IMG/VR virus record: IMGVR_UViG_3300025137_000016
Reading direction: 5' to 3' (one strand)
From: a virus
Length of the DNA: 64,000 bases
Shown here: positions 19,434 through 33,460 of the stretch, piece by piece
Numbering within the stretch: position 1 is the stretch's first letter
Layout of the letters: the number at the start of each line of letters is the position of its first letter
Program-made: the position numbers and the translations under genes
Notes under the pieces: generated by a model
Told to the model about the DNA's origin: nothing
Database searches by the model: none
What the model saw: only the letters and a program-made list of their open reading frames with translations

Positions 19434-21917
19434 ATGAAGTTTTATACTAATGTACATCCTCATGGCAATCAATTACTAGTCCGATATGTTTCGGGTGGTA
19501 AAAGACGTGCTGAAAAGATACCTTTCAAGCCTAGTGTCTGGGTGACACGAGGGAAAGGCGAAACACCATACAAAACTCTCAAAGGGCATCCTGCCTATAA
19601 AGTCCAACAAGCCAGCATTAAAGACGCAAAAAACTTTGTACAGTCTTATGGCGATGTTATGGATGTTCATGGTCAAACTACATGGCATTATCAATATATG
19701 CATGACGAGTTTGATAAAGATATTGATTGGGACAAAGATCTAATTAAGATCTGGTCTATTGATATTGAAACTGAAGCTGAAGAGGGTTTCCCTAATATTG
19801 AAAGAGCAAATGAGAAACTTCTTTTAATTACCTTACAAGATAATCATACTAAAGAAACTGTCACTTTTGGCACCAAGCCATATACTGGCGATGCTACTCA
19901 ACATACTGATTGGCGATATGTATATTGTAGTGATGAGAAAGTTCTCTTTAATAAATTTCTAGATTACTGGATTGAAAACTATCCTGATGTTATTACTGGA
20001 TGGAACTCTCAGTTCTTTGACCTTGCTTATTTATGGAGAAGAATGTGTCACATAATTGGTGAAGACCATGCTCGTAGATTATCTCCCTGGAAAATAGTAC
20101 ATGAAAGGGAAATATTTGTAAAAGGTAATAAACAGTTCGCCATTGCTATCGCAGGTGTTGCTCAGCTAGATTATCTAGACCTCTACAAAAAATATACTTA
20201 TACTGCCCAGGAATCTTATCGTTTAGATAATATCGCATTCGTTGAACTTAATTCTAAGAAATTAGATCACAGTGAATATTCTACATTCTCTGACTTCTAT
20301 AAGATGGACTGGAATAAGTTTGTTGATTATAACATTCATGATGTTAGATTAGTTGATATGCTAGAAGATAAAATGAAACTGATTGAACTTCAGTTGACTA
20401 TGGCATATAATGCTAAGATTAATTATGATGATGTATTCTCGCAAGTTCGTATGTGGGATATGATTGTTCACAATTATCTAATGAAAGTAAATGTGGTCAT
20501 ACCACCCAAGTCCAGCCAAAATAAATCTACTAAGTTTGAAGGAGCATTCGTAAAAGATCCAATTGTAGGATTACATAAATGGGTGGCTTCCTTTGACTTA
20601 AACTCACTATATCCGCATTTAATTATGCAGTATAATATTTCCCCTGAAACATTACAACAAGAATCAGTTGAAAAGGGTGTCGAGCATTATCTTAAAAATC
20701 CTGCTGGAGAATCTGATTTTGCTGTTGCTGCAAATGGTTCGCAATATAGAAAAGACTTTAGAGGTGTGTTCCCATCTATTATGGAAGACTTCTATAATCA
20801 AAGAAAGATTGCTAAAAAAGAAATGCTTCAAGCACAGCAATTATATGAAAACGAAAATGATCCTAGACAATTAAAAGTTATCTCAAGTAAAAATAATTAT
20901 CAGATGGGAATGAAGATTGCTCTTAACTCTGCTTATGGTGCACTCGGCAATCAATACTTTAGATACTTTGATATTAAGATGGCTGAAGCTATTACTACTT
21001 CTGGGCAATTATCTATTCGTTGGATTCATGATAGAATGAATGAATATCTAAACAAGATAATTGGTACAAAAGATGAAGACTATATTATTGCTGTTGATAC
21101 AGATTCTATCTATGTGACCTTTGAGAAACTTGTTGATAAAGTTATGGGAGATAAACAAACTGACATAAATAAAACTATTAAGTTCTTAGATACAATATGT
21201 AATGAAAAATTCATGCCATATATAAATGAGCAATATGCTATTCTTGCTAAAAGACAAAATGCTTTTGCAAACAAGATGGTAATGGAAAGAGAAGTTCTAG
21301 CCGATAAAGGTTTATGGACTGCTAAGAAAAGATATGTTCTTTCAGTATATAACTCTGAAGGAGTATCTTATAAAAAACCTAAGATGAAGATTATGGGTTT
21401 AGAGATGATTAAATCTTCTACTCCTCATGCTGTTCGTGAATTATTAAAAGAGGTAATACCAACTGTTCTTCGTGGAACTCAATCTGAATTGTATGAGTTT
21501 ATCGAGAAAGCTAGAACTCATTTTAATTCACTTCCTGTTGAAGAGATTGCTTTTCCTAGATCGGTAAATGGTCTGAGCAACTATTATGATTCCTCTCAAA
21601 TATATCGCAAGGCAACTCCTATTCATGTTAGAGGTGCTTTACTTTATAATCATTATTTAAAAGAGAAGAATCTAAATCTTAGATATAATACTATTAAAGA
21701 GGGTGAAAAGATAAGATTCGTATATCTTAAAAAGCCCAATACAATGAGGGAAAATGTTATTTCCTTCCTGGATGAGATTCCTAAGGAATTTGATATCCAT
21801 AAATATGCTGACTATGACTTGATGTTTGAAAAGGTGTTTCTAGATCCTCTTGAAATACTAGTAAATTCGCTCAAATGGAAGGTCAAGGACACAGCTTCTT
21901 TAGAGGATTTCTTTTAG
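19434..21917 (+). CDS. gp43: Family B DNA polymerase gp43
   Basis: DIET exonuclease, SFDLNSLYP, KIALNSAYG, DTDS; uninterrupted. Confidence 0.97.
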   Translation: MKFYTNVHPHGNQLLVRYVSGGKRRAEKIPFKPSVWVTRGKGETPYKTLKGHPAYKVQQASIKDAKNFVQSYGDVMDVHGQTTWHYQYMHDEFDKDIDWDKDLIKIWSIDIETEAEEGFPNIERANEKLLLITLQDNHTKETVTFGTKPYTGDATQHTDWRYVYCSDEKVLFNKFLDYWIENYPDVITGWNSQFFDLAYLWRRMCHIIGEDHARRLSPWKIVHEREIFVKGNKQFAIAIAGVAQLDYLDLYKKYTYTAQESYRLDNIAFVELNSKKLDHSEYSTFSDFYKMDWNKFVDYNIHDVRLVDMLEDKMKLIELQLTMAYNAKINYDDVFSQVRMWDMIVHNYLMKVNVVIPPKSSQNKSTKFEGAFVKDPIVGLHKWVASFDLNSLYPHLIMQYNISPETLQQESVEKGVEHYLKNPAGESDFAVAANGSQYRKDFRGVFPSIMEDFYNQRKIAKKEMLQAQQLYENENDPRQLKVISSKNNYQMGMKIALNSAYGALGNQYFRYFDIKMAEAITTSGQLSIRWIHDRMNEYLNKIIGTKDEDYIIAVDTDSIYVTFEKLVDKVMGDKQTDINKTIKFLDTICNEKFMPYINEQYAILAKRQNAFANKMVMEREVLADKGLWTAKKRYVLSVYNSEGVSYKKPKMKIMGLEMIKSSTPHAVRELLKEVIPTVLRGTQSELYEFIEKARTHFNSLPVEEIAFPRSVNGLSNYYDSSQIYRKATPIHVRGALLYNHYLKEKNLNLRYNTIKEGEKIRFVYLKKPNTMRENVISFLDEIPKEFDIHKYADYDLMFEKVFLDPLEILVNSLKWKVKDTASLEDFF

Positions 21918-24506: not shown

Positions 24507-25901
24507 ATGCGTATTGAAGAAACTATATTAAATAATCTATTACATAATGATGAATACTCACGCAAGGTGACACCATTCATCAAACCTGAATATTTTGAAG
24601 AACGCAATGAGAAGATTATGTTTGAAGAATATACTAAGTTATTCCTACAATATAATAATGTTCCTAATGCTGAAATGATTGCTAATGAAGTCTTCAATCG
24701 TAAAGACTTATATGATAATGATCATAAACTAATTCAGGATGCCATTCTTAAGATGAAAGAGCCAAATGATGTAAATGAAAACTGGCTCTATGATAAAACT
24801 GAAGATTGGTGTAAAGAACGAGCAGTATATAATACTGTAATGGATGCTATCAAAATTATTGATGGTCGTGATAAACAACATACCAAAGATGCTATTCCTA
24901 AAATGATGCAAGATGCTTTGGGTGTTTGCTTTGATACTTCTGTTGGTCATGATTATCTAGAAGACTCCGACTCTCGTTATGAGTTCTATCATAAAGTTGA
25001 AGAGAAAATTAAATTTGATATTGAATTATTGAATACTATTACCAGAGGTGGCTTGAGTAAAAAGACTCTTAATATTGCTATGGCTGGTACAGGTGTTGGT
25101 AAATCATTATTTATGTGTCATCATGCTGCATCAGTTTTGGGTGCTGGTATGAATGTTCTTTATATTACTATGGAGATGGCTGAAGAAAAAATCTCTGAAA
25201 GGATTGATGCTAACTTATTGAACTTGGGTATGAATGAAATTAAAGTCGTTGACCATGACATATTCAGTAAAAGAATTAATAAGATTAAAGATTCTAGTAA
25301 AGGTAAATTGATTGTAAAAGAATATCCTACAGGCTCTGCTCACTCTGGTCACTTCAGAGCATTACTTGAAGAACTTAAAATGAAAAAAGGTTTCAAGCCA
25401 GATATTATCTTTATTGATTATCTTAATATCTGTGCTTCACAAAGATTAAAGATGGGATCTAATGTAAACACTTATTCTTACATTAAATCTATTGCCGAAG
25501 AACTTAGAGGACTGGCAGTTGAATATAATTGTCCTCTCGTATCAGCTACCCAAACGACAAGAGGTGGCTTTAATAACACTGATGTTGGTCTAGAAGATAC
25601 TTCTGAATCTTTTGGTTTACCAGCGACTGCTGATTTAATGTTCGCGATTATTGCTAGTGAAGAACTAGACAATATGGGACAGTGGATGATTAAGCAACTG
25701 AAGAATAGATATTCAGATCCTAATTATTACAAGCGATTCGTAGTTGGTGTTGATAAGAATAAAATGCGATTATATGATGTAGAAGCATCTGCTCAATCAA
25801 ACATAATGGGATCAGGTCAAGAAAAAAAAGAAGATGATATCGCTGTGTTTGATAAGTCCGATGCTGGACAGCGATTAAATATGGAAGGATTTAAATTATG
25901 A
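24507..25901 (+). CDS. gp41: Replicative helicase gp41 (DnaB-like)
   Basis: AGTGVGKS, IDYLNIC, SATQTTR, SESFGLPATAD, QLKNRY. Confidence 0.96.
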   Translation: MRIEETILNNLLHNDEYSRKVTPFIKPEYFEERNEKIMFEEYTKLFLQYNNVPNAEMIANEVFNRKDLYDNDHKLIQDAILKMKEPNDVNENWLYDKTEDWCKERAVYNTVMDAIKIIDGRDKQHTKDAIPKMMQDALGVCFDTSVGHDYLEDSDSRYEFYHKVEEKIKFDIELLNTITRGGLSKKTLNIAMAGTGVGKSLFMCHHAASVLGAGMNVLYITMEMAEEKISERIDANLLNLGMNEIKVVDHDIFSKRINKIKDSSKGKLIVKEYPTGSAHSGHFRALLEELKMKKGFKPDIIFIDYLNICASQRLKMGSNVNTYSYIKSIAEELRGLAVEYNCPLVSATQTTRGGFNNTDVGLEDTSESFGLPATADLMFAIIASEELDNMGQWMIKQLKNRYSDPNYYKRFVVGVDKNKMRLYDVEASAQSNIMGSGQEKKEDDIAVFDKSDAGQRLNMEGFKL

Positions 25902-27199
25902 CAAAAGTGATAACAGCACCAAAGAAGTTTGAATGCGAAGATAAGCTAGGATTATTTGGTGATGAAAATGATTATGAATTATTATGTGATTGGGATTGCG
26001 ACTTTTATGCTCCCACTCCTATGGGTGAAGAAAACTCTGAAGCCAATATTATATTTAAGTTTAGAAAAAACTGGTTTACTCAAGACCAACAAGATAAAGC
26101 ATATAATGGTTTGCGTGAAGCAGCAGGTGCCACTGAGAATCGTGGACTCGCAGCAGGTAGTGAAAAAACAGTTGCTCTAGGAACTAGGGATTGGGTCACT
26201 AACTATCACAACGCATTAATACAATATTTTATGTCACCCTCAGCTACTCTTGATGGCTCGGATCCTGTTGAAGCAATTCAACTAGAGTATAAAGGTCGTG
26301 AGAAGATTGCTGATGACAGTCGTGGTAAAGTGTGGCTCGCACAAAAAGTAGCAGAAGAAGATTTCGTATTTGATAATTGGGTTGAAGAAATAAGAGGATT
26401 GCCTAGAGAGGAAATGGTTAAAGAAGCAACTAGAGTAAATGATAAATTGACCTCTACAACTTCTTATGCTAATTCAGTGTTCTCAGGTATCGCAGGATTC
26501 TTTGATAGATACCCTCGTATTCCTTTTGGTCGTCCTACAACTTTCACTAGAGATAATCCTGAGAAGTTTGAACAAGGATTCCCTTTCTTACAACAATTAT
26601 CTAAAGGTTTTGGTGAACTATTGCCAGTCAGGTATGGTAAACAACAGGAAGCATGTAATAAACTAGATAATAAATTTATTATTCCTGGAACTGTTTTCAC
26701 TACTGCTACTGTTAATAAAACATTTAGAACAGCATACCATCGAGACATGGGAGATCTAAATGAAGGATTCTCTAATCTTACAGTCGTATCAAATAATGGT
26801 AAATATTCTGGTGGGTACTTAATACTTCCTGAATATAAAGTTGCTATTAATATTCGTCCAGGAGATTTATTATTAATTAATAATCATGATGGAATACATG
26901 GTAATACACCAATGGTTATGGAAGATGAAAGTGCTGAAAGAATATCTTTCGTATGTTATTTCAGAGAGAAGATGTTAGAACTAGGAAGCTGGGATTATGA
27001 ACGAGCTCGTGAAGATTATGTTATTAATCGTAGAACTAATAAAGAACACGTCTTACAAAGACCATTATGGAATGGTATTAGTCCTGGGATGTGGGATGAG
27101 AAAGAATGGTATGACTTTCTTGAAGATAAACTAGGGAAAGATATTGTATCTAAGTACCACCCTGACAGTGAAGCTAGTTCTCTAGCAGACTTTTTTTAG
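25898..27199 (+). CDS. TET/JBP-family 2OG-Fe(II) dioxygenase
   Basis: FTT.TVN..FRTAYHRD.GD (HxD), GGYL.LPEY, GDLLL...H...HGNT, RIS.VCY.RE. Confidence 0.85.
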   Translation: MTKVITAPKKFECEDKLGLFGDENDYELLCDWDCDFYAPTPMGEENSEANIIFKFRKNWFTQDQQDKAYNGLREAAGATENRGLAAGSEKTVALGTRDWVTNYHNALIQYFMSPSATLDGSDPVEAIQLEYKGREKIADDSRGKVWLAQKVAEEDFVFDNWVEEIRGLPREEMVKEATRVNDKLTSTTSYANSVFSGIAGFFDRYPRIPFGRPTTFTRDNPEKFEQGFPFLQQLSKGFGELLPVRYGKQQEACNKLDNKFIIPGTVFTTATVNKTFRTAYHRDMGDLNEGFSNLTVVSNNGKYSGGYLILPEYKVAINIRPGDLLLINNHDGIHGNTPMVMEDESAERISFVCYFREKMLELGSWDYERAREDYVINRRTNKEHVLQRPLWNGISPGMWDEKEWYDFLEDKLGKDIVSKYHPDSEASSLADFF

Positions 27200-27200
27200 T

Positions 27201-27932
27201 ATGAATTATAAAATATTTAAAGACACCTATGTTCGTGAAGTAGATGGCAAAGCTCTAGGAGTTGATAAGGATATGGTGAACCAATGCCTATCTAATTATT
27301 CAAAGTTTGATAATCTTGATGGTGCCATAGTTATGGACTGGGGTATGAATATTGGTGCGTTTGGAAGAATGCTACTTGATACAAATATAAAACAATATAT
27401 TGGTGTAGAATGTCATCCTGAAAATTTTGAAGTATGTGAAAAGAATCTAGGGCATGATGAAAGATTTTGTTTAATTAATGCTGCAGTCACTACTCAAGAT
27501 ATTCCTGAGATAACTTTATATCTAACAGGAAGTAAACAAGAATTTTGTTCAGGCACTACTAATCCAAAAAGTAATGCTGCAAAGAACATGAGAAAAAACC
27601 AAGTCAAAGTTCCAACAGTACAAGCACAACAATTATTTGATATTTACCAACCAACACATTTAAAGTGTGATGTTGAAGGCGAAGAATATCGTATCTTTGA
27701 ACCAGATTGGTTTATTCCTGAAAGTATCAAACAGATGTCTTTAGAGTTTCACTGGTCAGATAGAATACTATCAGATTATGAAAGCAATCAACGAGCTAAA
27801 TTTATTGAGCAAGGTTTCACACCTTTACAAGAACAATTAAATTTAGTCCCAGGAGATAAGCAAGTAATGTTCTTGGGTGAAGAAGTTAAATACAGAAACA
27901 TATGGGGTATGGATACTCTATATAAACGATGA
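27201..27932 (+). CDS. FkbM-family SAM-dependent methyltransferase
   Basis: DWGMNIGAF motif I, E.HPENF, NAAV, LKCDVEGEEY, EFH. Confidence 0.85.
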   Translation: MNYKIFKDTYVREVDGKALGVDKDMVNQCLSNYSKFDNLDGAIVMDWGMNIGAFGRMLLDTNIKQYIGVECHPENFEVCEKNLGHDERFCLINAAVTTQDIPEITLYLTGSKQEFCSGTTNPKSNAAKNMRKNQVKVPTVQAQQLFDIYQPTHLKCDVEGEEYRIFEPDWFIPESIKQMSLEFHWSDRILSDYESNQRAKFIEQGFTPLQEQLNLVPGDKQVMFLGEEVKYRNIWGMDTLYKR

Positions 27933-29113
27933 AGTATTTACACACAGATAATAAAGATAAAGAATATGTAGATTGGCGACTCCCTGAAAATAGGGAGAAA
28001 GGTTTTCTATTATGGTTAGATTGGCGACTAACTTATAATGACCTCGACCATTACATGACAGCCAACATATTTCGCGATGCTACTGGCGATAAATCCCCTA
28101 CAAAAAAACCTATGACTGAAGAACAGCGACTCTGGTACTGTTTAATCTTTGGTTGCACCTATCAAACAGAAATGGCTTGGGCGATATATTGGAACTTTCC
28201 AAATCTATTGGAAATTGATTTACAAGAATTAGAAGAATGGAATGTTGAGCATTTAGATAAACAAAGATATGCTCGTGATACAAAATATAATAAAGGTAGA
28301 ATTGCTGAACAAGTAAGATCTATGCAACAATTGATTATGCCCTATGGTTCTATTAAAGCATGGGTAGATAATCAATTAAGAGATAACCCAAGTGAATCCT
28401 TTTTTAATATGTATGAGGAAGCACAGAAGATACACAAGTATGGTAGAATGACTACATGGTTATTTTGTCAAGCATTAAAAGAAACAGCCGAAGTACCCTT
28501 AGAGCCTGACACAATGTTAGCTACTGACAAATCTAACTGGAGTGTTAGATCTGGTCTTTGTTATTTAAAAGGTTGGGATAATCTTATTGAAGCCAAAGGT
28601 GCGAAGCTCGGAAAAGATGATATGCTGAATGTGGCTGAAGCAGAAAAATATATTTTTGCCAAAGCTAAAGATAATGTTTCGCCAGAAAATTCTAAAGTGC
28701 TTACAAACTTTTTATTAGAATCCCACCTATGTCAATATAAGAAACTAATGCTTGGTGGCGATTATGGTGGGCACTCTTCAGGTGATCATTATTCTAGAGG
28801 AAGTTTTTTAAAAGAAAAATGGGAGGGTATAGTGAACTATGATGCGTTCTTTGAAGATGCTATTACTAAGCATCACCCACTCGTACAGAAAAAAAGGGAA
28901 AGTCTTGCCCTAAGAGATTTATGTAAGAAAACAGGTCAAATGATTAACCTTCATCAAGATTATGATTTTATGCCAGATATGTATAAGGAAACAGGAATGG
29001 ATCCTAACTGGTTCTATAACAAGGGTGCTTATGAGAAAGAAGCAGTCAAATGTATAGATGCGTATCAGCTAAAGATGAGTGAAGAGAAATTCGGCTTGGA
29101 GGTTTACTTTTAA
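27929..29113 (+). CDS. aGPT-Pplase / amino acid:DNA transferase-like protein (HhH glycosylase fold)
   Basis: RLW...FG.TY....AW, D.KY.KG, YGRM..W.F...L, RSGL, LES.LC.YKK pattern; context with TET/JBP and P-loop kinase. Confidence 0.7.
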   Translation: MKYLHTDNKDKEYVDWRLPENREKGFLLWLDWRLTYNDLDHYMTANIFRDATGDKSPTKKPMTEEQRLWYCLIFGCTYQTEMAWAIYWNFPNLLEIDLQELEEWNVEHLDKQRYARDTKYNKGRIAEQVRSMQQLIMPYGSIKAWVDNQLRDNPSESFFNMYEEAQKIHKYGRMTTWLFCQALKETAEVPLEPDTMLATDKSNWSVRSGLCYLKGWDNLIEAKGAKLGKDDMLNVAEAEKYIFAKAKDNVSPENSKVLTNFLLESHLCQYKKLMLGGDYGGHSSGDHYSRGSFLKEKWEGIVNYDAFFEDAITKHHPLVQKKRESLALRDLCKKTGQMINLHQDYDFMPDMYKETGMDPNWFYNKGAYEKEAVKCIDAYQLKMSEEKFGLEVYF

Positions 29114-29131
29114 GTTTTTCTAGTATAGAAT
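29103..29131 (+). promoter_or_regulatory. Class B promoter for inositol synthase operon
   Basis: TIGHT match TTTACT-17-TAGAAT overlapping the upstream stop codon. Confidence 0.75.
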
Positions 29132-29212
29132 TCTTATATATAAATGAAAAGTGTGCTAATCTGATCCAGTCAAATCCCACACTCTAATAAACTGATATAA
29201 AGGAGAAAAAAT

Positions 29213-30490
29213 ATGTCAAAAATTAAGGTCGCCATTATTGGCACTGGTAATTGTGCAAAGTCGGTAGTCGAAGGTGTGCAATACTATACTCAAAATCCCC
29301 AAGATAAAGTAGGATTAATGTATCCAGATATAGGAGGATACACTGTAGAAGATATCGAATTCGTTTGTGGTTTCGATGTTGATCCTAGAAAAGTCGGGAA
29401 ACCATTACAACAAGCATTAAGAGCAGCACCAAACTGTGCCATGCATCATGTATCAGAAATTGATGATACTTGTATAGCAAAAGACAGTATGGTATATTCT
29501 AGTCCAGAACTAGATGGAGTTGCTTCACACATGCTTGACTATCCAGAAGCAGTATCATTTAGAACAGGAGCAGAAACTGCTTTATCTAAAAAACAAGTTG
29601 CTCATACTTTAAACTTCCACAAGGTTGATGTTATTATTAACTATCTTCCAGTTGGTTCTGAAAAAGCAACAGAGTTTTATATAGACGCAGCAGTAATGGC
29701 TGGTGTTCATTTTGTAAACTGTATTCCAACTCTTATTGAAACTGAAAAGACTAAAGTCATAGAACAGAAGTTCATTGATGCTGGTCTTACTATTGTCGGA
29801 TCTGATATGAGATCTGCATGGGGTGCTTCTAGATTATCTGAAGTATTACAGGGAGCGATGTTAGATTCTGGTCTACAAGTGACGCAACATATTCAAATGA
29901 ATATGGCAGCAGGATCTACACAAGGTCAAGAAACTATTAGAACAGGAAGAACAGCAAATACTGACTTCTTAAATATGGCTTATAAAGAAAGATTAAAATC
30001 TAAACATATTTCTAAAGAGAATGTTTTAAAAGGTCAGAATCTAGTTAGAGATGAATCTATCGCAGGTATGACTTTGTATGCTGGTCCAAGTTTAACAGTA
30101 TTCCAAAAACCTGGAGGAGAATATGTTGGCTCTGATAATAAGATTGCCAATTTAGATATAGTCGCCTATGGTTTTGGTGGGGCAAGGTATGAATTATCTG
30201 CAAGGATGTCAGTACAAGATTCGCCAAACTCTGGAGGTGTAGTTGTATCAGCTATTCGTTTCTGTAAGGTTGCTTCTGAAATGCAAGTAGTTGGATTCTT
30301 AAGAGGTCCATCAGCTTGGACGCAAAAGACTCCACCTGTACAATTAAAAACAGAAGATGCTAAGTTTGAATGTGATGCATTAGCTAGACGTGAACTTACT
30401 AAGATGACTGAACCACAGTTAGTTGTAAACAAACCAAAAGCAAAAGATCTAGCATATACATATCAAAAAGGTGAAACTGATTATGAATAG
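29213..30490 (+). CDS. ino1: myo-inositol-1-phosphate synthase
   Basis: KVAIIGTGNCA.S.V.GV.YY, NYLPVGSEKA, FVNCIP, NTDFLNM, SK.ISK, DSPNSGGV...AIR.CK. Confidence 0.9.
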   Translation: MSKIKVAIIGTGNCAKSVVEGVQYYTQNPQDKVGLMYPDIGGYTVEDIEFVCGFDVDPRKVGKPLQQALRAAPNCAMHHVSEIDDTCIAKDSMVYSSPELDGVASHMLDYPEAVSFRTGAETALSKKQVAHTLNFHKVDVIINYLPVGSEKATEFYIDAAVMAGVHFVNCIPTLIETEKTKVIEQKFIDAGLTIVGSDMRSAWGASRLSEVLQGAMLDSGLQVTQHIQMNMAAGSTQGQETIRTGRTANTDFLNMAYKERLKSKHISKENVLKGQNLVRDESIAGMTLYAGPSLTVFQKPGGEYVGSDNKIANLDIVAYGFGGARYELSARMSVQDSPNSGGVVVSAIRFCKVASEMQVVGFLRGPSAWTQKTPPVQLKTEDAKFECDALARRELTKMTEPQLVVNKPKAKDLAYTYQKGETDYE

Positions 30491-30893
30491 AAGAATCAAT
30501 ACTTTTGATATTGATGGTGTTATCTATATGGGTAAGCACGATGGTGTTTATCCAGGAAAAAGTGATGTCATTATTACAGGTAGATCTATAGATGAGTGGG
30601 ATGAAACTACTGCTATGCTACAAGCAAAAGGCATTAAGAATGAAGTCTTTATGAATCCAGCAAGGTTTGAAAATAAAACTAGACAAGGTTCTGGTATTCA
30701 TAAAGGCAACATTATAAAAATGTTAAGAGTTCAAAGAGAGATAGAAATAGGAATACATTTTGATGACGATCCTATACAAATAAAAGAGATCGAAAGAATA
30801 AATCCTGATATCACATGTGTACTATTATCCCATGAATTAGTGGATAAAGAAAACTGTAGACATGTAAACTTCTTTGAGTCTGGAGGAGAATAA
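30483..30893 (+). CDS. HAD-superfamily phosphatase
   Basis: FDIDGV motif I, ITGR motif II, K, HFDDD motif IV. Confidence 0.8.
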   Translation: MNRRINTFDIDGVIYMGKHDGVYPGKSDVIITGRSIDEWDETTAMLQAKGIKNEVFMNPARFENKTRQGSGIHKGNIIKMLRVQREIEIGIHFDDDPIQIKEIERINPDITCVLLSHELVDKENCRHVNFFESGGE

Positions 30894-31468
30894 TGATTAT
30901 AGCAATTGGTGGAGAACCAGCAACAGGTAAATCTACATTGATGAAACAATGGATGAAAGATTATACTTGGGATGATGTCAAGTGTACAGATCTATTATAT
31001 GGTATGCACTGTCAAGAGCTGAATACTATTGTTCTCGGAAAAGACTATTTCAATGAAGAACAGATGTTCTGTGGTACTGATAGACTATCAATGGCAGTAC
31101 AACCTAAAGCCATTGAGTGGTTTAAAACCTCATACAAGCCATCTGGGGTTAATATCGTATTTGAGGGAGATAGGTTGTTTAGTGCTTCATTTCTTGGCGA
31201 AATGACCTCTCAGGGACACGATATACGCATCATTTACATAAAGGCAGACCAAAGTACCCTAGACGAAAGACATGTCTCCAGGAACGATAATCAGGACGAT
31301 AAGTTCCTAAAATCAAGGAAAACCAAGCTATCTAACATATTATCCAACTTCGAGCTTATGCCCTACATTGAAGAGTTTACAAATAATACAATTGAAGATC
31401 AGTCGGTCTTAGTGGAATTAATCTTAAAGGAACTAAATAGTAGTGATGGCAAAATGGTACAGGGATAA
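30893..31468 (+). CDS. P-loop nucleotide kinase (modified-base kinase-like)
   Basis: GGEPATGKST, GTDRLSM, FEGDRL, lid R...R. Confidence 0.8.
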   Translation: MIIAIGGEPATGKSTLMKQWMKDYTWDDVKCTDLLYGMHCQELNTIVLGKDYFNEEQMFCGTDRLSMAVQPKAIEWFKTSYKPSGVNIVFEGDRLFSASFLGEMTSQGHDIRIIYIKADQSTLDERHVSRNDNQDDKFLKSRKTKLSNILSNFELMPYIEEFTNNTIEDQSVLVELILKELNSSDGKMVQG

Positions 31469-32006
31469 GGCAACCATTTCAGTACGAGGTGGCGATGCTC
31501 CAACTAGAAAACTCATAAGAGAGATGGCACACTATTGTGCTAAAAAACTTATGACTGTTCAACTCCGAACTCAAGTCACAATAAATTTCGTAATTACAAA
31601 AGACCTTTACTTAACTGAAAAGGTCCAAGGACTATCTTGGATTGATTGCGAAGAATATCGTCCAAAGAAATTTAAAATACAAGTAGAACACGAATCCAAA
31701 TTAAGACCTTTATTAGAAACTGTAGCACATGAGATGGTACATATAAAACAATGGGCATCTGGTGATATGTATGAATATTCAGATGGTAATAGAACTCGCT
31801 ACAAAAAGAAACAATATAATAATCAAAAAATAGATTATTGGGATTCGCCATGGGAAGTAGAAGCACATGGTAAAGAGGTTGGTCTATTTGTTCGTTTTTG
31901 TGAAGATGAGGGTTATAAAGATGAGAAGTGGGCAAAGGTCGATTTCTTAAAACCTGAATATGCAAAAAGAATCGCAAAACATATAAAAGCAAAAAGAAAA
32001 AAATAG
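31446..32006 (+). CDS. Zincin/SprT-like metallopeptidase
   Basis: AHEMVHIKQ, Y...PWE.EA. Confidence 0.75.
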   Translation: MAKWYRDKATISVRGGDAPTRKLIREMAHYCAKKLMTVQLRTQVTINFVITKDLYLTEKVQGLSWIDCEEYRPKKFKIQVEHESKLRPLLETVAHEMVHIKQWASGDMYEYSDGNRTRYKKKQYNNQKIDYWDSPWEVEAHGKEVGLFVRFCEDEGYKDEKWAKVDFLKPEYAKRIAKHIKAKRKK

Positions 32007-32047: not shown

Positions 32048-33460
32048 ATGGCAAATATATTTAAAGATAAATATCCCACAGGTCACAAGGTCGTGATCAA
32101 AGACAGGCAAGGCTTAACCAAAGTCGGTCCCATCATTCCTAGCATTATCACTCAAGCAAAAGCAAACATCAATCCAGGAAGTACTGTATTTGAATTAGAG
32201 AAAACAAGATTTACTAATTTAAAATATGAAATAAATCTTTCTAAATCTGGTGTTGCTCAAGAAATATATATGAGGAAGAGTGGTCACCTGTATAAGTTCA
32301 TTGGTTCTAAAAGTGTATTAGAAGGTATCTTCAGTCATGCTGGTGATGGAACTTCAGCAAAATCTGATACGAATTCTAAAACTGAATGCCAAGAATTAGT
32401 GTCTTTACATTTATTCGAGCAAAAATTAAAGTTTGGAAAAGATCAAGATTATGATTATATCGAATCATGCCTGCCTACTAAATTAAGAAAGTTCTTTAAT
32501 GAAGATTTCTATGAAAGTGCTAAAAAACAACTAGCACTATTCCTCAGCAAACACCCCAAGCTATTCACAGGTCCAGGATTCATATTTGAATTACAACTAG
32601 CCAGTCCTGCAACAAAAAGAATATATGCTAATGCTCTAAAGTTATCTAAACTGAATAAGGATAACTGGAATCCAGCTGATATGTGGATCGTGAGTAAGAG
32701 TTTAGATTATGATGTTTATGAAACTGCCACTGATATCCAATCAGTTAATAAACAACTAATCGCAGATTATCAAGCTGGACTTCTAGTTGGAATATCTCTA
32801 AAGAAAATCTTGCCAGGACAATTAGGTCAGATACAATTTATTAATACCTCGGAAACAAAAAAGAAAGAAACTAAATTTGATTTCAGTTTTGAGTTAAATG
32901 CTTTGACAGGAAGATCAAAAGCCAAAGATAAAATTAATGGTAATGCTTTTAATAACTTTATCATCTACACAAAATCAGGCTTTGGTATTCGTGGTGGGTT
33001 TAAAGCATCATCAACAACTTATAGTGTATCACTAGAGGGAAGATTTAAAAACTCTGGTTCACAGGTTGGTGGTATGGATGCTAAAGTTGTACCCAAAGAA
33101 TTTGTTAAGAGATATGGATATACATTAAGACAGGGTGGCATTCCTAATATTAAAGCAGAAGAAAAAATAGCATTACAAGAAATGAAAGAGATCTATGCAA
33201 AACATGGTGACAAGGTATCAGTATCAACAGACATGAATACCTATGCTGACTTTCTAAAAGTTTACAAAGGTGCGAATGATTTTGAGAAACAAAGATTGTG
33301 TCGTATCTCTTCTATGCTATATCCATTCATGGTATTGGCTTTTAATAAGCCGAAGAAGAAACAGAAGCAGACTGAATTTGAAAATTTAATGGACTGGAGT
33401 TATTCCCTAGCGAAGAAAGAAACAGCAGTTGGTGGCTTCTATGTCATCGTAAAACCATAA
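32048..33460 (+). CDS. Hypothetical protein, possible restriction-endonuclease-fold nuclease
   Basis: QE...KDNWNPADMW...GISLKK resembles a PD-(D/E)xK variant. Confidence 0.45.
   Translation: MANIFKDKYPTGHKVVIKDRQGLTKVGPIIPSIITQAKANINPGSTVFELEKTRFTNLKYEINLSKSGVAQEIYMRKSGHLYKFIGSKSVLEGIFSHAGDGTSAKSDTNSKTECQELVSLHLFEQKLKFGKDQDYDYIESCLPTKLRKFFNEDFYESAKKQLALFLSKHPKLFTGPGFIFELQLASPATKRIYANALKLSKLNKDNWNPADMWIVSKSLDYDVYETATDIQSVNKQLIADYQAGLLVGISLKKILPGQLGQIQFINTSETKKKETKFDFSFELNALTGRSKAKDKINGNAFNNFIIYTKSGFGIRGGFKASSTTYSVSLEGRFKNSGSQVGGMDAKVVPKEFVKRYGYTLRQGGIPNIKAEEKIALQEMKEIYAKHGDKVSVSTDMNTYADFLKVYKGANDFEKQRLCRISSMLYPFMVLAFNKPKKKQKQTEFENLMDWSYSLAKKETAVGGFYVIVKP

Follow-up and report, generated by a model that had tools for sequence, protein, structure and literature searches.

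A predicted cyclitol-based thymidine hypermodification cassette in a T4-like phage

Why would a phage place a gene for myo-inositol-1-phosphate synthase among genes that appear to modify its DNA? This question is raised by the DNA stretch analysed here (the window), 64,000 nucleotides (nt) of the IMG/VR virus record IMGVR_UViG_3300025137_000016, in which six genes stand directly behind the gene for the helicase gp41. They encode, in order, a TET/JBP dioxygenase, an FkbM-family methyltransferase, an amino acid:DNA transferase (AADT), a myo-inositol-1-phosphate synthase homologue (INO1), a HAD phosphatase and a P-loop kinase. A first reading of the bare sequence (the original prediction) had proposed that these enzymes together turn thymine in DNA into a base with an O-linked inositol. 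We conclude that thymidine hypermodification with a cyclitol nucleophile made by the phage itself is the best reading of this locus, with a probability of roughly 55%. That the six genes form a thymidine hypermodification cassette is very likely, and INO1 and the HAD phosphatase are probably a functional part of it.

Six coupled genes with intact catalytic motifs

The original prediction had described six tightly coupled genes at this locus. Open reading frames (ORFs) are found exactly there, all of them on the + strand, and all six identities hold. The gp41 stop overlaps the TET start by 4 nt, a single nucleotide separates the TET and FkbM genes, the FkbM and AADT genes overlap by 4 nt, the INO1 and HAD genes also overlap, and the HAD and kinase genes share 1 nt; a gap of 99 nt lies between AADT and INO1. 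With the six-gene region as query, megablast returned zero matches among GenBank phages.

The first gene (25898–27199) encodes a Fe(II)/2-oxoglutarate (2OG) dioxygenase of the TET/JBP family (5mYOX), a predicted thymine dioxygenase that matches Tet_JBP (PF12851) at 1.6e-21. Its catalytic residues are kept in the family alignment, namely the iron triad H281-x-D283 and H334, and the 2OG-binding arginine R348. It is followed by an FkbM-family S-adenosylmethionine-dependent methyltransferase (27201–27932; PF05050 at 1.2e-6 and 29.2 bits against a cut-off of 22.7), which scores barely above the cut-off of TIGR01444 (39.1 against 37.7 bits) and is a predicted tailoring O-methyltransferase. Relatives vary in the slot between TET and AADT: some have FkbM there, some a GT4 glycosyltransferase and some no gene at all. 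In FK506, the hydroxyl that FkbM itself methylates is a cyclohexyl one.

The third product (27929–29113) is an AADT, formerly called aGPT-Pplase clade 2. It matches ADDT (PF18724) at 5.6e-20 and 72.5 bits, against a cut-off of 26.2, and its catalytic E264 and C268 are invariant over homologues at 21–53% identity. The assignment to the AADT/aGPT-Pplase family, on which the original prediction hung, therefore stands, with the Glu/Cys pair intact. The nearest full-length relative among GenBank phages is the INO1-linked AADT of Caulobacter phage Cr30. PDB sequence searches with the AADT, the TET protein and the kinase gave nothing useful.

INO1 (29213–30490) aligns over its full length with the Mycobacterium tuberculosis Ino1 structure 1GR0 (2e-53, residues 3–386, about 40% identity), and also matches TIGR03450 (2.8e-62) and PF01658 (1.5e-9). 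It carries the Rossmann NAD-binding motif GTGNCAKS at residues 10–17, and its K264, K268, K310, D336/S337 and K372 align with K248, K252, K284, D310/S311 and K346 of M. tuberculosis Ino1, which we take to be the catalytic residues of that enzyme. The bacterial arrangement of Ino1 with an inositol monophosphatase (IMPase), which in M. tuberculosis supplies mycothiol and phosphatidylinositol, resembles the phage pair in the full-length homology, the aligned residues, the NAD motif and a phosphatase gene directly after. The differences are the limited identity and a score below the equivalog cut-off, two insertions in the forms from marine phages and phage RP13, a capless HAD phosphatase of about 130 amino acids (aa) in the window in place of the IMPase fold, and a setting of DNA modification instead of lipid or thiol synthesis.

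The HAD ORF (30471–30893) encodes 140 aa, though translation probably begins at the ATG at 30483. It matches PHROG 415 (2.2e-8) and had no Pfam match in a Pfam search of the window proteins. Motifs I–IV read D13-x-D15, T36-G-R, K78 and D99-D100, and the six residues D13, D15, T36, K78, D99 and D100 do not vary among 27 sequences. The structural model (pLDDT 90.5) is matched by Foldseek, at probability 1.00, to the phosphatase domain of T4 polynucleotide kinase (PNK), to the LNS2 domains of lipin/Nir2 and to KDO8P phosphatase; judged by this model, the product is a small capless HAD phosphatase with a Rossmannoid fold, and cyclitol phosphate is its predicted substrate. Action on a DNA-bound phosphate, as for a capless PNK-like enzyme, was considered and set aside: the protein has no polymerase-like tail, and the capless KDO8P phosphatase uses a small sugar phosphate.

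The last gene (30893–31468) encodes a P-loop kinase with the Walker A motif GGEPATGKST at residues 6–15. It also matches AAA_33, and its best Pfam family is the DNA-modification-associated Ploopntkinase3 (PF18751, 6.3e-9); it is a predicted kinase of 5-hydroxymethyluracil (5-hmU) in DNA.

Thymine as the likely substrate of the dioxygenase

TET/JBP enzymes may act on thymine or on 5-methylcytosine (5mC), and we asked which partners accompany the gene, testing genome-wide absences on related IMG/VR records that include a complete relative of 154 kb with terminal repeats. Neither the window nor four window-type records, the complete genome among them, gave a ThyA-family match, and the C5-methyltransferase family PF00145 and ParB_N are likewise without a match across five related records, again with the complete relative included. 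A tblastn search of the window likewise found no homologue of the ThyA-like, SGNH and C5-methyltransferase-like proteins, or of the 5-hydroxymethyldeoxyuridine (5-hmdU) DNA kinase HMUDK, that are met in other phages (see below). Since the complete relative has no ThyA homologue, C5-methyltransferase or ParB, thymine is the likely TET substrate, as had been predicted; 5mC was rejected because a C5-methyltransferase was found nowhere in the window or the related records. The lack of ParB_N in the five related records indicates that this TET arrangement is ParB-independent.

A similar setting has been published. O'Toole et al. 2026 (PMC13229309) link the T-dioxygenases of 5mYOX clade C1 with P-loop kinases and AADTs, and describe the missing C5-cytosine methyltransferase partner as what separates T-oxidising from 5mC-oxidising 5mYOX clades. 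The window TET gene fits their ParB-independent or clade C1 picture, a clade match made by gene context: a TET/JBP gene without a neighbouring C5-methyltransferase keeps company with a P-loop kinase and an AADT, and the co-occurring domains given there include O-methyltransferase, HAD, glycosyltransferase, kinase and amino acid transferase. Window-type genomes differ from that account in showing no ParB partner, and inositol goes unmentioned in the main text of that survey.

A second precedent is base J of kinetoplastids, made by JBP1/2 and a glucosyltransferase. There too, thymine is hydroxylated after replication by TET/JBP enzymes and a polyol is then O-linked to the hydroxymethyl group. 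In base J, however, a UDP-glucose glycosyltransferase acts straight on 5-hmU, kinase and AADT have no part in the route, and a pyranose is attached, whereas the adduct proposed for this cassette is a carbocycle.

A proposed route to a cyclitol-bearing thymidine

In the known route of thymidine hypermodification, 5-hmdU is converted to 5-phosphomethyldeoxyuridine (5-PmdU) by the kinase 5-HMUDK and is then the target of transfer by AADT/aGPT-Pplase2 (Lee et al., PMC8989533). The Glu/Cys pair is essential in AADT, which forms a covalent C6 adduct and then an exocyclic methylene; this mechanism takes O-, N- and S-nucleophiles (hydroxyl, amine, thiol) on 5-PmdU, and gp247 of phage ViI attaches serine via the hydroxyl of serine (PMC8989533). 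The window cassette shares with the pathways of ViI/CBA120, M6, PaMx11, SP10 and PhiW-14 (PMC8989533) the AADT Pfam family with its Cys/Glu pair, a clustered kinase gene, the O-linked precedent (O-serinyl-T of ViI) and the biological logic of phage DNA protection. It departs from them in that 5-hmU would come from TET/JBP acting on DNA, theirs coming from dUMP hydroxymethylase, and in that its kinase belongs to PF18751, theirs to HMUDK. It also lacks their tailoring enzymes: of the pyridoxal phosphate (PLP), radical-SAM, FAD and acetyltransferase enzymes that amino-acid pathways employ, profile searches of the window cassette found none. What it encodes instead is a cyclitol-phosphate synthase and a phosphatase, suggesting a nucleophile other than an amino acid.

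On the observed gene identities, motifs and synteny we propose the following scheme. The TET/JBP enzyme would hydroxylate thymine of newly replicated phage DNA to 5-hmU, and the P-loop kinase, for which we infer a DNA target, would phosphorylate the 5-hmU hydroxyl. By analogy with the characterised kinase-to-AADT chemistry, the AADT (Cys268/Glu264) would then expel the phosphate via an exocyclic methylene and add a hydroxyl nucleophile. This nucleophile would be a free cyclitol, most likely myo-inositol, made by INO1 from glucose-6-phosphate and relieved of its phosphate by the HAD enzyme. FkbM may finally O-methylate the cyclitol, a tailoring role that a GT4 or TET-associated-type glycosyltransferase would fill in relatives. 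This route would yield 5-(inosityl-oxymethyl)-dU, a nucleoside of about 420.4 Da, with a methylated form of about 434.4 Da.

INO1 and HAD travel together among base-modification clusters

If INO1 and HAD supply a DNA-modifying pathway, they should keep such company elsewhere. An INO1 search gave 83 loci, comprising 80 from IMG/VR and those of the cultured phages RP13, Cr30 and Moby-like Stenotrophomonas phages, whose ORFs were called and clustered. HAD follows INO1 in 76 of the 83, and wherever a locus is long enough for judgement, the pair is almost always surrounded by a cluster of DNA base-modification genes. These clusters follow several unrelated designs: the TET-AADT-kinase type of the window, a dUMP-hydroxymethylase-like/5-hmdU-DNA-kinase type, a podovirus-like type and two 7-deazaguanine clusters. 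A kinase of either of two clusters, Ploopntkinase3 or HMUDK, is present within 6 kb in 27 of the 32 loci whose flanks are complete; where no less than 2.5 kb of downstream sequence is available, the figure is 50 of 57. Either kinase follows HAD, with HMUDK taking this position in other INO1 architectures, although the two show no detectable similarity to each other by hhalign.

The window's own combination, in which TET, AADT and the PF18751 kinase join INO1 and HAD, accounts for only about a quarter of the loci. The majority architecture, found in marine T4-like phages in the interval between gp43 and uvsX (L017, L020, L024, L050, L081 and about 40 other loci), runs DUF1599, ThyA homologue, dCMP deaminase, INO1, HAD, HMUDK, a 343-aa protein and a C5-methylase-like protein, with no AADT. 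Here DUF1599 bears the label 'nucleotide modification associated', and the kinase is a 5-hmdU DNA kinase with the HMUDK helical domain. The 343-aa protein (cluster c4) has a GDSHS motif and is modelled as an N-terminal domain plus an SGNH/GDSL fold; it and the HMUDK kinase are the two halves of the fused PHROG 17781. We considered it as a hidden AADT and rejected this on an hhalign probability of 0.3 and the SGNH/GDSL hydrolase fold of the model.

A like adjacency is seen again on unrelated genome backbones. Ralstonia phage RP13 has an AADT-like protein, HMUDK (3e-47), INO1 and HAD, and on a podovirus-like contig with PolA and DnaB a ThyA homologue precedes an unbroken run of AADT, HMUDK, INO1 and HAD. 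Cr30, a cultured and widely used transducing phage, carries TET, AADT, a TET-associated-glycosyltransferase-like protein, INO1, HAD and kinase. In still other phages the pair stands in a different kind of cluster: Stenotrophomonas phage Moby (L003, 7207–12621) has the order FolE-INO1-HAD-QueC-DpdA-QueE, and the marine contig L047 (9959–19680) has INO1-x-HAD-x-QueC-FolE-phosphoribosyltransferase and, further on, a QueE-like gene. Moby-like genomes and L047 thus resemble the phage 7-deazaguanine clusters (FolE-QueD-QueE-QueC-DpdA) and hold INO1 and HAD inside them; the window differs in having no 7-deazaguanine genes.

In a tree of 101 INO1 sequences we counted at least 8 changes of cluster type, with SH-aLRT values of 93–99 on key nodes; TET-type clades are nested within HMUDK-type clades and vice versa. 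These changes of context indicate that INO1 and HAD have moved repeatedly, always landing within a base-modification cluster. The same tie is seen from the side of the transferase. A reverse search seeded with an alignment of INO1-linked AADTs gave 71 loci (AADT identity 23–89%), and INO1 adjoins AADT in 68 of them, usually with TET upstream and HAD and kinase downstream. In two loci (L096, 5820–10954, and L113) INO1 gives way to a radical-SAM protein, DUF2284 and a class II aldolase-like protein, while HAD is retained. Among GenBank phages, AADT relatives occur in 346 records and INO1 in only 19, so AADTs in general are independent of INO1.

The original prediction had tied ino1 and HAD to the transferase and the kinase, and had named an occurrence of ino1 independent of both in relatives as counting against it. 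Such an occurrence was found in part: the link to hypermodification clusters holds across many phage lineages, but most relatives have HMUDK and the SGNH protein and no AADT, and two 7-deazaguanine clusters have no 5-hmU kinase. Of the predicted pathway, the gene identities, the AADT family, the thymine substrate and the link of INO1 and HAD to such clusters were sustained; its scheme is narrower than the distribution of the module. The contexts outside AADT and kinase suggest a module broader than the specific scheme. It is possible, if doubtful, that INO1 and HAD are a portable cyclitol-donor module serving TET-made 5-hmU, dUMP-hydroxymethylase-made 5-hmU and 7-deazaguanine pathways in abundant marine phages and some from soil or freshwater, in which case cyclitol DNA bases, with O-methylated and glycosylated variants, would be widespread and so far undescribed.

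Several of these loci have further features. In Cr30 (L002, 4901–5428 and 2706–4034) a protein with a PF18909 dATP/dGTP diphosphohydrolase N-domain (5.1e-34) lies between TET and AADT, and the TET homologue carries the GenBank annotation 'putative SNF2 DNA repair protein'. The L096 cassette comprises a radical-SAM protein, FkbM, AADT, HAD, DUF2284, a PF18751-type kinase and the class II aldolase-like protein, and cassettes of this type may make a different nucleophile. Locus L112 (7387–14788) is rearranged, with kinase, AADT, a cytidylyltransferase-cupin fusion, an unknown protein, GT4, an NT5C-type HAD, INO1 and TET, a gene set that hints at nucleotide-activated sugar or cyclitol chemistry. 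A homologue of the anti-Pycsar protein Apyc1 (3.1e-30) is encoded at 19681–20457 of L047, a few kb downstream of its INO1/7-deazaguanine cluster.

Polymerase-like tails on the base-modifying enzymes

In T4 and RB69, C-terminal tails like that of the DNA polymerase gp43 dock on the sliding clamp. The window TET protein ends in SSLADFF (27176–27199), which resembles the gp43 C-terminus, and the window AADT ends in GLEVYF (29093–29110). We therefore surveyed the window and the relatives L017–L083 for such tails ([ST]LE[DE]FF-like). They are present in 13 of 14 TET proteins, 34 of 37 HMUDK kinases, 29 of 34 SGNH proteins, 21 of 23 C5-methylase-like proteins and the window-type AADT. INO1 (0/67), ThyA-like proteins (0/35), dCMP deaminases (0/33) and PF18751 kinases (0/12) have none, and HAD has one in 59. 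Read from sequence, the pattern suggests that base-modifying enzymes are tethered to the clamp in these T4-like phages; the tail would separate DNA-acting from small-molecule enzymes, with the PF18751 kinase an ambiguous case. Its absence from INO1 and HAD fits small-molecule roles for both.

Evidence against the scheme and alternative readings

A number of observations weigh against the full scheme, which as a whole is an argument from gene context. The kinase is the most exposed step: PF18751 lies outside the biochemically validated HMUDK family (PF18723), tblastn found no HMUDK homologue in the window and Cr30 has none either, and since the PF18751 kinases lack the tail of DNA-acting enzymes, their substrate could be a small molecule. 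INO1 reaches 211 bits against TIGR03450, far below the equivalog cut-off of 638, has a 15-aa insertion in a catalytic loop (233–247) and reads GSDMRS where the GDDxKS motif has GDDIKS, a change of Lys to Arg; its product may, for these reasons, not be myo-inositol-3-phosphate. The distribution also tells in part against the scheme. Most INO1-HAD loci have an SGNH-fold protein in place of AADT, and in the Moby-like and L047 lineages the pair sits in 7-deazaguanine clusters, from which 5-hmU enzymes are absent. Many loci are closely related, so that the locus counts overstate independence, and the AADT search was itself seeded from INO1-linked members.

The AADTs characterised so far all use amino acids or putrescine (PMC8989533), which would favour a reading in which the window AADT adds an ordinary amino acid or polyamine, and INO1 and HAD serve a later or side step, for instance a cyclitol for decoration by the enzyme in the FkbM/GT slot or by another transferase. 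GT4 or TAGT-like glycosyltransferases occur in many cassettes and INO1 and HAD also sit in AADT-less clusters, as this would have it. We nevertheless consider it unlikely, as INO1 adjoins AADT on its downstream side in nearly all loci of this AADT subfamily (68/71) and the window cassette has no PLP decarboxylase, radical-SAM isomerase, FAD lyase or acetyltransferase. A related doubt concerns the cyclitol itself. INO1 could be a cyclitol-phosphate synthase with another substrate or product, much as Ari2 is a synthase of five-membered cyclitol phosphate, so that the adduct would be a carbocycle other than myo-inositol. Its second-best solved relative, 6K96, is a five-membered-cyclitol-phosphate synthase (4.8e-28); the sub-cut-off score and GSDMRS point the same way, and so do the 15-aa insertion, common to the marine family and RP13, and the second insertion near the active site in these forms. 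The best match by far is nonetheless the bona fide M. tuberculosis enzyme, over the full length, the aligned Lys and Asp/Ser residues are all kept, and the homologues of Moby and Cr30 have no insertion and look canonical, which makes a different cyclitol rather improbable.

It is also conceivable that INO1 and HAD are an auxiliary metabolic pair, for an osmolyte or as a drain on glucose-6-phosphate, and stand near modification genes only because the plastic gp43-uvsX-gp41 region collects early genes. Published phage genome work describes ino1 as an acquired gene of bacterial type (PMC9025141), the replication-gene region is where T4-like relatives always have the pair, and Moby-like phages carry the pair without 5-hmU kinase or AADT. 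Chance proximity is, however, hard to reconcile with a pair that lies between, not beside, modification genes in at least five designs, one of them the non-T4 PolA podovirus-like contig, with at least 8 cluster switches that each end inside a modification cluster, or with INO1-less variants in which HAD is kept and other sugar-phosphate-type enzymes replace INO1; we regard a purely metabolic role as distinctly improbable. Least probable by our estimate, and very remote, is that HAD and the P-loop kinase are a split end-healing enzyme like T4 Pnk (3'-phosphatase and 5'-kinase) with no role in inositol or 5-hmU chemistry. In its favour are the translational coupling of the two genes, the place of the T4 Pnk phosphatase domain among the best family and fold hits of HAD, and the additional match of the kinase to AAA_33. 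The constant partner of HAD is INO1, however: HAD stays when HMUDK replaces the kinase or when a kinase is absent (Moby, L047), which argues against a split Pnk, as does the top Pfam match of the kinase. Hypermodification of thymidine with a self-made cyclitol thus accounts best for the cassette.

Implications for phage ino1 genes

Full-text searches found no literature link of ino1 or inositol to phage DNA hypermodification, although an earlier mention elsewhere is possible, and no cyclitol-type DNA base modification was found in searchable papers; the one phage paper discussing ino1 is that cited above for its bacteria-like acquisition. Pathways of this type have been described before; what appears to be new is the module that supplies the nucleophile, together with the predicted class of adduct. 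If the scheme is true, natural DNA would contain a new chemical class, a carbocyclic polyol ether on thymine, and phage ino1 would be re-read as a DNA-modification gene, no longer as an auxiliary metabolic gene. The substrate range of AADT would extend past amino acids and polyamines, which is relevant to enzymatic DNA labelling. Ocean metagenomes are rich in the family, with close homologues in the thousands, a number of them on contigs about 150 kb long, and so a bulky T modification would matter for major marine phage groups: it would affect their evasion of restriction and other defences, and alter the sequencing and cloning behaviour of their DNA.

Neighbouring features

The window comes from a marine T4-like phage and has about 35% G+C, with all long ORFs on the + strand and profile matches to gp46/gp47-type nuclease subunits, the gp45 clamp, gp43, UvsX, gp41 helicase, primase and ribonucleotide reductase. 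The gene before the cassette (24507–25901) encodes the replicative, gp41-type DnaB helicase (DnaB_C 2.1e-17; PHROG 19, 8.8e-127) and serves as context only. The ORF at 32048–33460 was excluded as a member of the module, as it resembles a virion protein.

Inspection of the gap between AADT and INO1 (29114–29212, + strand) found a strong ribosome-binding site, AAGGAG, before INO1 and the late-promoter-like sequence TATAAATG at 29139–29146, with 7 of 8 matches to what we take to be the T4 late-promoter consensus. Its position upstream of INO1 suggests that INO1, HAD and kinase may have a separate putative promoter of their own.

Overlapping the kinase stop is a gene on the + strand (31443–32006) for a SprT-like metalloprotease-type protein (PHROG 10499; nearest Atlas clusters 'SprT-like family protein', score 0.97) with HEMVH at residues 96–100 and a basic C-terminus. 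This possible accessory gene is kept only in the closest relatives (10 loci). As a speculation, a SprT-like protease directed against DNA-protein crosslinks would suit an AADT that passes through a covalent Cys-C6 intermediate.

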